Assembly: GCF_002854065.1 (NCBI RefSeq)
Contig: NZ_CP024147.1
Length of the DNA stretch: 64,000 nucleotides
Origin: Escherichia coli
Lineage (GTDB): Bacteria > Pseudomonadota > Gammaproteobacteria > Enterobacterales > Enterobacteriaceae
Reading direction: 5' to 3' (one strand)
Below the pieces are notes generated by a model. The model was not told the DNA's origin. It searched no databases and saw nothing but the letters and a program-made list of their open reading frames with translations. The translations under genes and the position numbers were made by a program. Shown here piece after piece: positions 24,241 through 24,772 of this stretch. The number at the start of each line of letters is the position of its first letter. Position 1 is the stretch's first letter.

Positions 24241-24340
24241 ACCTCCTTTCAAATGAATAGCCAACTCAAAATTCACACCTATTACCTTCCTCTGCACATA
24301 CGCATTCGTTAAACCATATATGTTTTTGACTTATCCGCTT
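24241..24340 (+). promoter_or_regulatory. Remnant of the chromosomal ars promoter/operator (-35 TTGACT at 24326-24331), truncated after ...TTATCCGCTT
   Basis: ATTCACACCTATTACCTTCCTCTGCAC...TATATGTTTTTGACTTATCCGCTT matches my recollection of the K-12 arsR upstream region. The -10 element and arsR are absent. Confidence 0.6.
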
Positions 24341-24391
24341 TGGTTTGTAACGCTGGTGGCGCTGGCGCTACGTCTCTCTTTCACTTTGTAA
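24341..24391 (+). pseudogene. arsB: arsB 3'-terminal remnant (last ~16 codons)
   Basis: It reads (W)FVTLVALALRLSFTL*, compared with [16 protein letters not shown] at the end of the intact arsB (9214-9262). Confidence 0.8.
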
Positions 24392-24403
24392 TGAGATAAT
24401 GAT

Positions 24404-24772
24404 ATGAGCAACATTACCATTTATCACAACCCGGCCTGCGGCACGTCGCGTAATACGCTGGAGATGATCCGCAACAGCGGCACAGAACCGACCATTATCC
24501 ATTATCTGGAAACTCCGCCAACGCGCGATGAACTGGTCAAACTCATTGCCGATATGGGGATTTCCGTACGCGCGCTGCTGCGTAAAAACGTCGAGCCGTA
24601 TGAGGAACTGGGTCTTGCAGAAGATAAATTTACTGACGATCGGTTAATTGATTTTATGCTGCAACATCCTATCCTGATTAACCGTCCGATTGTGGTGACG
24701 CCGCTGGGAACTCGCCTATGCCGCCCCTCGGAAGTGGTGCTGGAAATTCTGCCAGATGCGCAAAAAGGCGCG
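24404..24772 (+). pseudogene. arsC: arsC copy 2, truncated after codon 123 by IS1
   Basis: MSNITIYHNPACGTSRNTLEMIRNSGTEPTIIHYLETPP...LEILPDAQKGA then reads into the IS1 terminal repeat GGTAATGACTCC. The last 18 codons are missing. Confidence 0.85.

Follow-up and report, generated by a model that had tools for sequence, protein, structure and literature searches.

The native arsenic resistance locus of the Escherichia coli chromosome described here lies directly to the right of a genomic island that carries ars genes of its own, and what is left of it is a piece of promoter, the last bases of arsB and a truncated arsC. This arrangement raises the question of whether the resident operon is decaying now that an island has made it redundant, as had been proposed from the sequence alone, or whether its losses have another history. 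The 64,000-nucleotide stretch that contains the locus (contig NZ_CP024147.1, assembly GCF_002854065.1), hereafter the window, was aligned to positions 3645000-3658000 of K-12 MG1655 (NC_000913.3), a segment referred to as L001. We are confident that two unrelated deletions, widely separated in time, have shaped the locus: an old loss of arsRB and a recent erosion by IS1. The features on which this reading is based are listed in Table 1.

Table 1. Coordinates of the ars locus and its surroundings in the window.
Feature	Position	Strand	Basis or remark
Island ars cluster 1, arsR-arsD-arsA-arsB-arsC	5394-9700		
Island ars cluster 2, ArsR/SmtB regulator, arsH, ECF sigma, arsD-family, arsA and divergent permease	11813-16954		
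dinQ toxin CDS, left native flank as in K-12	23786..23869	-	K-12 alignment; PGAP annotation of CUWW06 (99.9% identical)
Single AgrB-family sRNA gene with terminator	24144..24228	+	Rfam RF02891, 103 bits
ArsR binding site (ABS) of Pars including the -35	24300..24331	+	Elements of PMC9134189; alignments; -35 at 24326-24331
Deletion junction	24340..24344	+	Left flank ends at 24340, right flank starts at 24343/24344; K-12 and O157:H7 alignments
arsB remnant, non-coding, last 49 nt including the stop	24343..24391	+	L001 5177-5225; TAA at 24389-24391
Putative hybrid extended -10, TGtAACGCT	24346..24354	+	Inferred from the sequence
arsC codons 1-123 of 141	24404..24772	+	ATG at 24404; protein identical to K-12 ArsC over these codons
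IS1, 768 bp, IS1B-like, insA and insB	24773..25540	-	Complete; starts GGTAATGACTCC...
dctR from nt 14 on	25541..26058	+	L001 9697-10215, 99.2%

The locus sits between agrB and yhiS in the gor-to-slp interval, with flanks that are 93-99% identical to K-12, and the PGAP context in strains CUWW06 and 100416 agrees with this placement. Native flanking sequence (the end of gor, dinQ and agrA) runs from 23717 to 24242 and corresponds to L001 2637-3161 (95.4%). The left arm of the deletion, which extends from agrB to 9 nt past the -35, spans 24125-24340 (L001 3275-3490, 92.7%, E 6.5e-87). The right arm, at 24343-24771 (L001 5177-5605, 95.1%), holds the final 49 nt of arsB, a 12-nt spacer and nt 1-368 of arsC. 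K-12 bases L001 3491-5176 (NC_000913.3 3648490-3650175) have no counterpart in the window, a gap of 1,686 bp that takes in the -10 hexamer, the 5' leader, the whole of arsR and nt 1-1241 of the 1,290 nt of arsB. A gap of 1,686 bp was again found when the intact O157:H7 allele, whose left flank is nearly identical to that of the window, served as the reference. Judged as a K-12-type arsRBC operon, the window lacks arsR and a full-length arsB, and the 49 nt that are present show that the deletion is the derived state.

Much of this anatomy had been recognised in the sequence-only reading, which described a promoter segment with a -35 TTGACT at 24326-24331, fused at about 24340/24341 to the arsB stop region, with the -10, arsR and about 1.2 kb of arsB missing. 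The K-12 alignment agrees with that description base for base and sets the loss from arsB at 1,241 nt. The K-12 promoter assumed in that reading is correct too, and matches the elements of MG1655 Pars given in the supplement of PMC9134189 (ArsR binding site ACACATTCGTTAAGTCATATATGTTTTTGACT, -35 TTGACT, -10 GACACT). The description of the event as a clean internal deletion stands in part. It is internal to a native, syntenic arsRBC operon, but it is not perfectly clean, as the bases TGG at 24341-24343 cannot be assigned in full to either flank, whether K-12 or the intact O157:H7 allele is used for comparison (in the base-by-base K-12 view, ...TTGACTTATCCGCTT / TGG / TTTGTAACGCTGG...). Alignment to K-12, which that reading had suggested as a way of defining the end points, places them at L001 3491 and 5176, and neither the K-12 nor the O157:H7 alignment contains useful microhomology or a repeat there. 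Two or three unassignable junction bases do not reveal by what mechanism the old deletion arose. Overall, the window has in common with K-12 arsRBC and Pars the synteny, the ArsR binding site, the -35 and, as protein, ArsC residues 1-123; it differs in having no -10 GACACT, no arsR, no functional arsB and no arsC codons 124-141. The first step that we propose would be a single ancient deletion of 1,686 bp, starting 9 nt past the -35 and ending 49 nt short of the arsB stop, which would have left the ArsR operator and the -35, the arsB stub and an orphan arsC.

At the other end of the locus, arsC had been described as cut after codon 123 by IS1, and codon 123 does end at 24772 with IS1 starting at the following base. 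The element has the full 768 bp, terminal inverted repeats and both insA and insB. What had been overlooked is that this IS1 has no target-site duplication, and that it is flanked by deletions in which yhiS, slp and dctR nt 1-13 have been lost as well. In the window the 8-9 bp duplication is absent (the flanks read GGCGCG and TTACCAGGG); the arsC 3' end, yhiS and slp are missing between arsC codon 123 and dctR nt 14, and dctR has lost its start codon and promoter along with its first 13 nt. The missing duplication together with the non-contiguous flanks is consistent with flanking deletion and not with simple insertion.

Two relatives place this structure in a series. Strain 100416 (human stool, Gambia), which covers 97% of the query at 99.6% identity, has intact arsC, slp and dctR and carries IS1 within the yhiS pseudogene, with a 9-bp duplication, CAGAATATA. 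That copy (annotated as IS1B) is 100% identical to the IS1 of the window and has the same orientation, but different flanks. CUWW06 (wastewater, Thailand; 99.9% identical) has the left junction of the window, while its right junction lies 80 bp deeper in dctR, so that window positions 25541-25620 are absent. A search of complete genomes returned none with the exact IS1-dctR junction of the window in one piece. Adjacent deletion mediated by IS1 is classical behaviour of this element, and 100416, the window and CUWW06 form what appears to be a three-step series typical of it. The window and its relatives resemble the classical case in showing a complete IS1 without a duplication, an undeleted insertion in a relative and a nested loss in a sister; the sole oddity of the window is that erosion has occurred on both sides. 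As a second step, we suggest that an IS1 already resident in the yhiS pseudogene recently deleted sequence on both its sides in the lineage of the window, the left-side deletion reaching arsC codon 123 and the right-side deletion dctR nt 14. This order of events is our reconstruction from the three genomes. If correct, they document a clean stepwise IS1 erosion into the acid-fitness island genes slp and dctR.

The gap could instead have been made by homologous recombination between one IS1 copy in arsC and another in dctR, which would likewise end in one IS1 lacking a target duplication. These genomes are rich in IS1, with further copies in one of the fetched loci (L003), and independent IS1 insertions lie near dctR in seven other genomes. 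Set against this, the interval in 100416 contains only one IS1, whose orientation is that of the window copy and whose sequence matches it at 100%, and the one-sided 80-bp loss in CUWW06 from the same IS1 end is a signature of adjacent deletion. We therefore regard recombination between IS1 copies as the weaker alternative and as unlikely, though deserving of consideration, and retain successive adjacent deletions as our reading. The independent insertions are in seven other complete genomes (including R8, 1448, 1444, Ec-U4, C21 and AH21) and lie tens to hundreds of bases from the dctR 5' end. The slp-dctR region may be a recurrent target of IS1.

The arsRB deletion has a very different distribution. 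A 200-bp query centred on the junction was spanned over at least 80% of its length in 1,111 of 5,426 complete E. coli genomes, or about a fifth. This count is in line with the 1,105 genomes found by a 1,051-bp query and the 758 found by a stricter one of 70 bp. In an evenly spaced sample of the non-carriers listed, the match always ended at query base 100 or began at 103-104. The survey for intermediate states that had been suggested alongside the decay proposal thus found none, and no other end points, among the matches listed from the 5,426 genomes with this 200-bp query; the non-carriers listed break exactly at the two end points. An exact-pattern scan for the junction, CCGCTTTGGTTTGTRACGCTGG, gave 0 hits in the GTDB species representatives.

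Ten further carriers were fetched: four with flanks of the window type (CUWW06, 100416, XJ34 and PapRG-06-5), O145:H28 strain RM9872, and five with B2-type flanks (ST131, KKo003, strain 9, APEC O2:K1:H5 and L1PEag1). The junction string CCGCTTTGGTTTGTAAC, including TGG, is identical in all 11 carriers when the window is counted. Judging by the evenly spaced listing, the B2-type haplotype makes up about nine-tenths of carriers and the window type is rare. Across the junction region the window is about 91% identical to ST131 and does not belong to the B2 flank haplotype.

Loss of arsRB from this place is already in the literature. Sütterlin et al. 2018 (AAC 62:e00209-18; PMC5923176) found only arsC between gor and slp in B2 isolates, concluded that arsR and arsB had been lost here rather than gained elsewhere, and reported an arsenite MIC of <128 mg/L in isolates without arsRB; in their data phylogroup E shows either gene order, with arsRB lost in part of E. 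A study from Bangladesh (PMC9731454) likewise describes ST131 isolates that lack arsR and arsB and are arsenic-sensitive. The window has the same place as the B2-type allele of PMC5923176 (gor/dinQ/agrB to yhiS/slp), with arsRB gone and arsC kept, and it shares its exact junction with ST131 and four other genomes of the ST131 haplotype. It differs in its flank haplotype, in the ars island in gor and in its arsC, which is not the intact 141-codon gene of the B2-type allele but is cut by IS1, codon 123 standing at the boundary of the element. The loss of arsRB is therefore an old, common and already published E. coli allele, and no new kind of feature. The junction CCGCTT-TGG-TTTGTAAC can serve as a one-line marker of the arsenite-sensitive ΔarsRB genotype. 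Such carriers lack both the ArsB pump and the ArsR repressor, and arsenite sensitivity is reported for those that have acquired no other ars system.

Two flank haplotypes, which differ by about 9%, are found among the carriers, and the carriers represent at least three backgrounds (B2-type, window type and O145). This diversity is what might be expected if a sequence-directed hotspot had produced the identical deletion repeatedly in separate lineages. Such recurrence is very improbable in view of the same three unassignable bases, TGG, in all 11 carriers examined, the SNPs next to the junction (GTAAC, GGTGGCG) that nearly all carriers share and that are absent from the intact K-12 and O157 alleles, the end points without useful microhomology or repeat, and the absence of alternative end points among the matches listed from the 5,426-genome search. 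A single origin is the parsimonious reading, and the one we favour. Given the distance between the flank haplotypes, and an O145 arsC that resembles intact E and A alleles more than it does other deletion alleles, a single origin would require that later homologous recombination moved or reshaped the allele. The ΔarsRB allele is characteristic of phylogroup B2 and is also present in a minority of non-B2 lineages (among them the chu-positive lineage of the window, and O145:H28); besides vertical inheritance, homologous recombination has probably contributed to its spread. An assembly artefact is ruled out by the same structures in independent complete genomes.

The neighbouring island is about 25 kb long and lies in the last codons of gor (23717-23735 in the window; 8860-8874 in L003), with the direct repeat GT[T/G]ACCATG. 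It had been said to supply two other ars systems, and annotation bears this out with an arsRDABC cluster and a second cluster of arsH, arsD and arsA. These are the only complete ars systems of the strain. As the native locus has neither pump nor repressor, arsenic resistance must come from the island. At 100% identity the island ars module was found only in CUWW06, and copies of about 92-95% identity are on E. coli plasmids. The arsRB-deletion relatives have no ars module at gor, which indicates that the island arrived long after the deletion; the identical junction in 1,111 genomes leads to the same conclusion, that the deletion long predates the island. Several minor features of the island can be noted. 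The C-terminus of Gor reads ...VTMRG with the island, as against ...VTMR, and the integrase gene (17413-18756) lies inside the island and not at its end. In the second cluster, a SigZ-like ECF sigma gene stands between arsH and the arsD-family gene, the divergent permease shows only below-cutoff similarity to the SO_0444 Cu/Zn efflux family, and no ArsB or Acr3 is annotated.

With this in mind, it is scarcely credible that arsRB was lost recently and in this strain alone, from an operon that the two island systems had made redundant. What suggests this explanation is that arsRDABC and the second cluster lie directly left of the native locus, and that an IS1-cut arsC is seen only in the two genomes with this island. 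Against it, the junction is identical in 1,111 genomes, very few of which have this island; it occurs where gor is directly beside dinQ (B2-type genomes) or has no ars module (XJ34, PapRG); and the arsRB loss was already published in 2018 (PMC5923176). For the arsRB deletion this explanation is refuted, and elsewhere among the carriers sampled the orphan arsC is intact; for the truncation of arsC alone, redundancy with the island is possible, and arrival of the island arsC would have made the native one dispensable. The loss of arsRB is ancient and widespread, and of the two events the IS1 erosion alone is recent. The main value of the analysis lies in this correction: what looks like fresh decay beside an island is an old, common and published allele, and should be annotated as such and not as a novel event. 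The window-type carriers XJ34, Combat11I9, L26 and 23CRST011, and XJ6-3, which is also non-B2, have at another chromosomal site an arsRDABC/arsH island different from that of the window. The B2-type carriers sampled have no such island and only one ars-related place. The ars islands of non-B2 deletion carriers may represent compensatory acquisition.

An old deletion that spared arsC leads to the question of how the orphan gene might be expressed. The ArsR binding site of the window has three substitutions relative to K-12 and one relative to the intact O157:H7 allele. Compared with Pars, the binding site and the -35 are kept and the -10 is deleted, with AACGCT now at the same spacing: the junction reads TTGACT-17-TGtAACGCT and the native promoter TTGACT-17-GACACT. 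The AACGCT hexamer is conserved in the carriers sampled, with AACTCT in two. These motifs allow the tentative proposal that the deletion created a new element resembling an extended -10, joined to the ArsR operator left in place and 17 nt from the -35 as in the native promoter, and that the orphan arsC would be transcribed from it. It is just as speculative that arsC would be constitutive in genomes without ArsR and under ArsR/arsenite control in trans where an island provides an ArsR of the same subfamily. The window would be an example of the latter, the island ArsR falling in the same NCBIfam subfamily as enterobacterial ArsR (NF007528, 218 bits). Such a hybrid promoter would possibly be weak and ArsR-responsive in trans. 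If real, it would explain why arsC has stayed intact without the pump, and would imply a role of ArsC independent of ArsB and an orphan arsC that is expressed in about a fifth of sequenced E. coli. A promoter and terminator scanner called nothing at the junction; since it also misses the native Pars of K-12, which has been used experimentally, it is uninformative on a promoter here. Publications on the expression of arsC in uropathogenic or B2 strains were also sought, and nothing relevant was found; the one candidate paper had its transcriptome from K-12 W3110.

The coding sequence gives a further view of the orphan gene. All nine other carriers in which arsC was read have 141 codons. Synonymous and non-synonymous differences number 27 and 9 between 100416 and ST131, and 21 and 5 between 100416 and O145 (dN/dS 0.07-0.21). 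Within the B2-type haplotype there are 0-4 synonymous and 1-3 non-synonymous differences, counts too small to show constraint. The ratios between deletion haplotypes would fit constraint on the orphan arsC, an argument that recombination weakens, because some arsC segments may have been imported after evolving in intact operons. In the window, codons 1-123 differ from K-12 at 18 synonymous sites, 17 of them in nt 192-369 (15 in nt 192-327). This cluster, at window 24595-24772, distinguishes the window from both K-12 and O157, with one site in nt 1-191, and looks like a mosaic import from a divergent arsC. Gene conversion by the island arsC was considered as a simple source of the 17 SNPs and rejected, as only 8 of the 17 sites match.

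The truncated gene may still encode most of what defines the protein. Its reading frame continues for 26 codons into IS1 to a stop at 24851-24853, giving a chimera of 149 aa, and the PGAP annotation of CUWW06 still calls the IS1-fused ORF arsC. Cys12, Arg60, Arg94 and Arg107, which the truncated protein was said to retain, are all found in the translation; we take their roles, a catalytic cysteine and a triad of arginines, to be those established for R773 ArsC. ArsC(1-123) passes the cutoff of NF007456 (268.5 bits against 242) and that of TIGR00014 (137 against 106), ArsC residues 4-116 covering model positions 1-114, and PDB homologues of 119-121 aa align over ArsC residues 1-116 or 3-116. 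By these matches the truncation leaves the whole conserved ArsC domain in place. For the island ArsC, AlphaFold run on the single sequence gave a low-quality model (mean pLDDT 58).

The left flank of the locus also varies among carriers. Rfam model RF02891 has two hits in K-12 (agrA and agrB) and in O145, as against one in the window, the B2-type genomes and XJ34. The left part of the single copy in the window aligns to agrA and the right part to agrB (L001 3064-3147 and 3295-3378), which suggests a collapse of about 231 bp by unequal crossover. The spacer between the dinQ CDS and agr is 274 nt in the window and K-12, compared to 75 nt in ST131 (L004 2765-2839), KKo003 and strain 9 (L007 and L008). 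The further 199 bp missing from these three genomes should include the dinQ promoter and 5' UTR. APEC O2 and L1PEag1 have kept the long dinQ-agr spacer.
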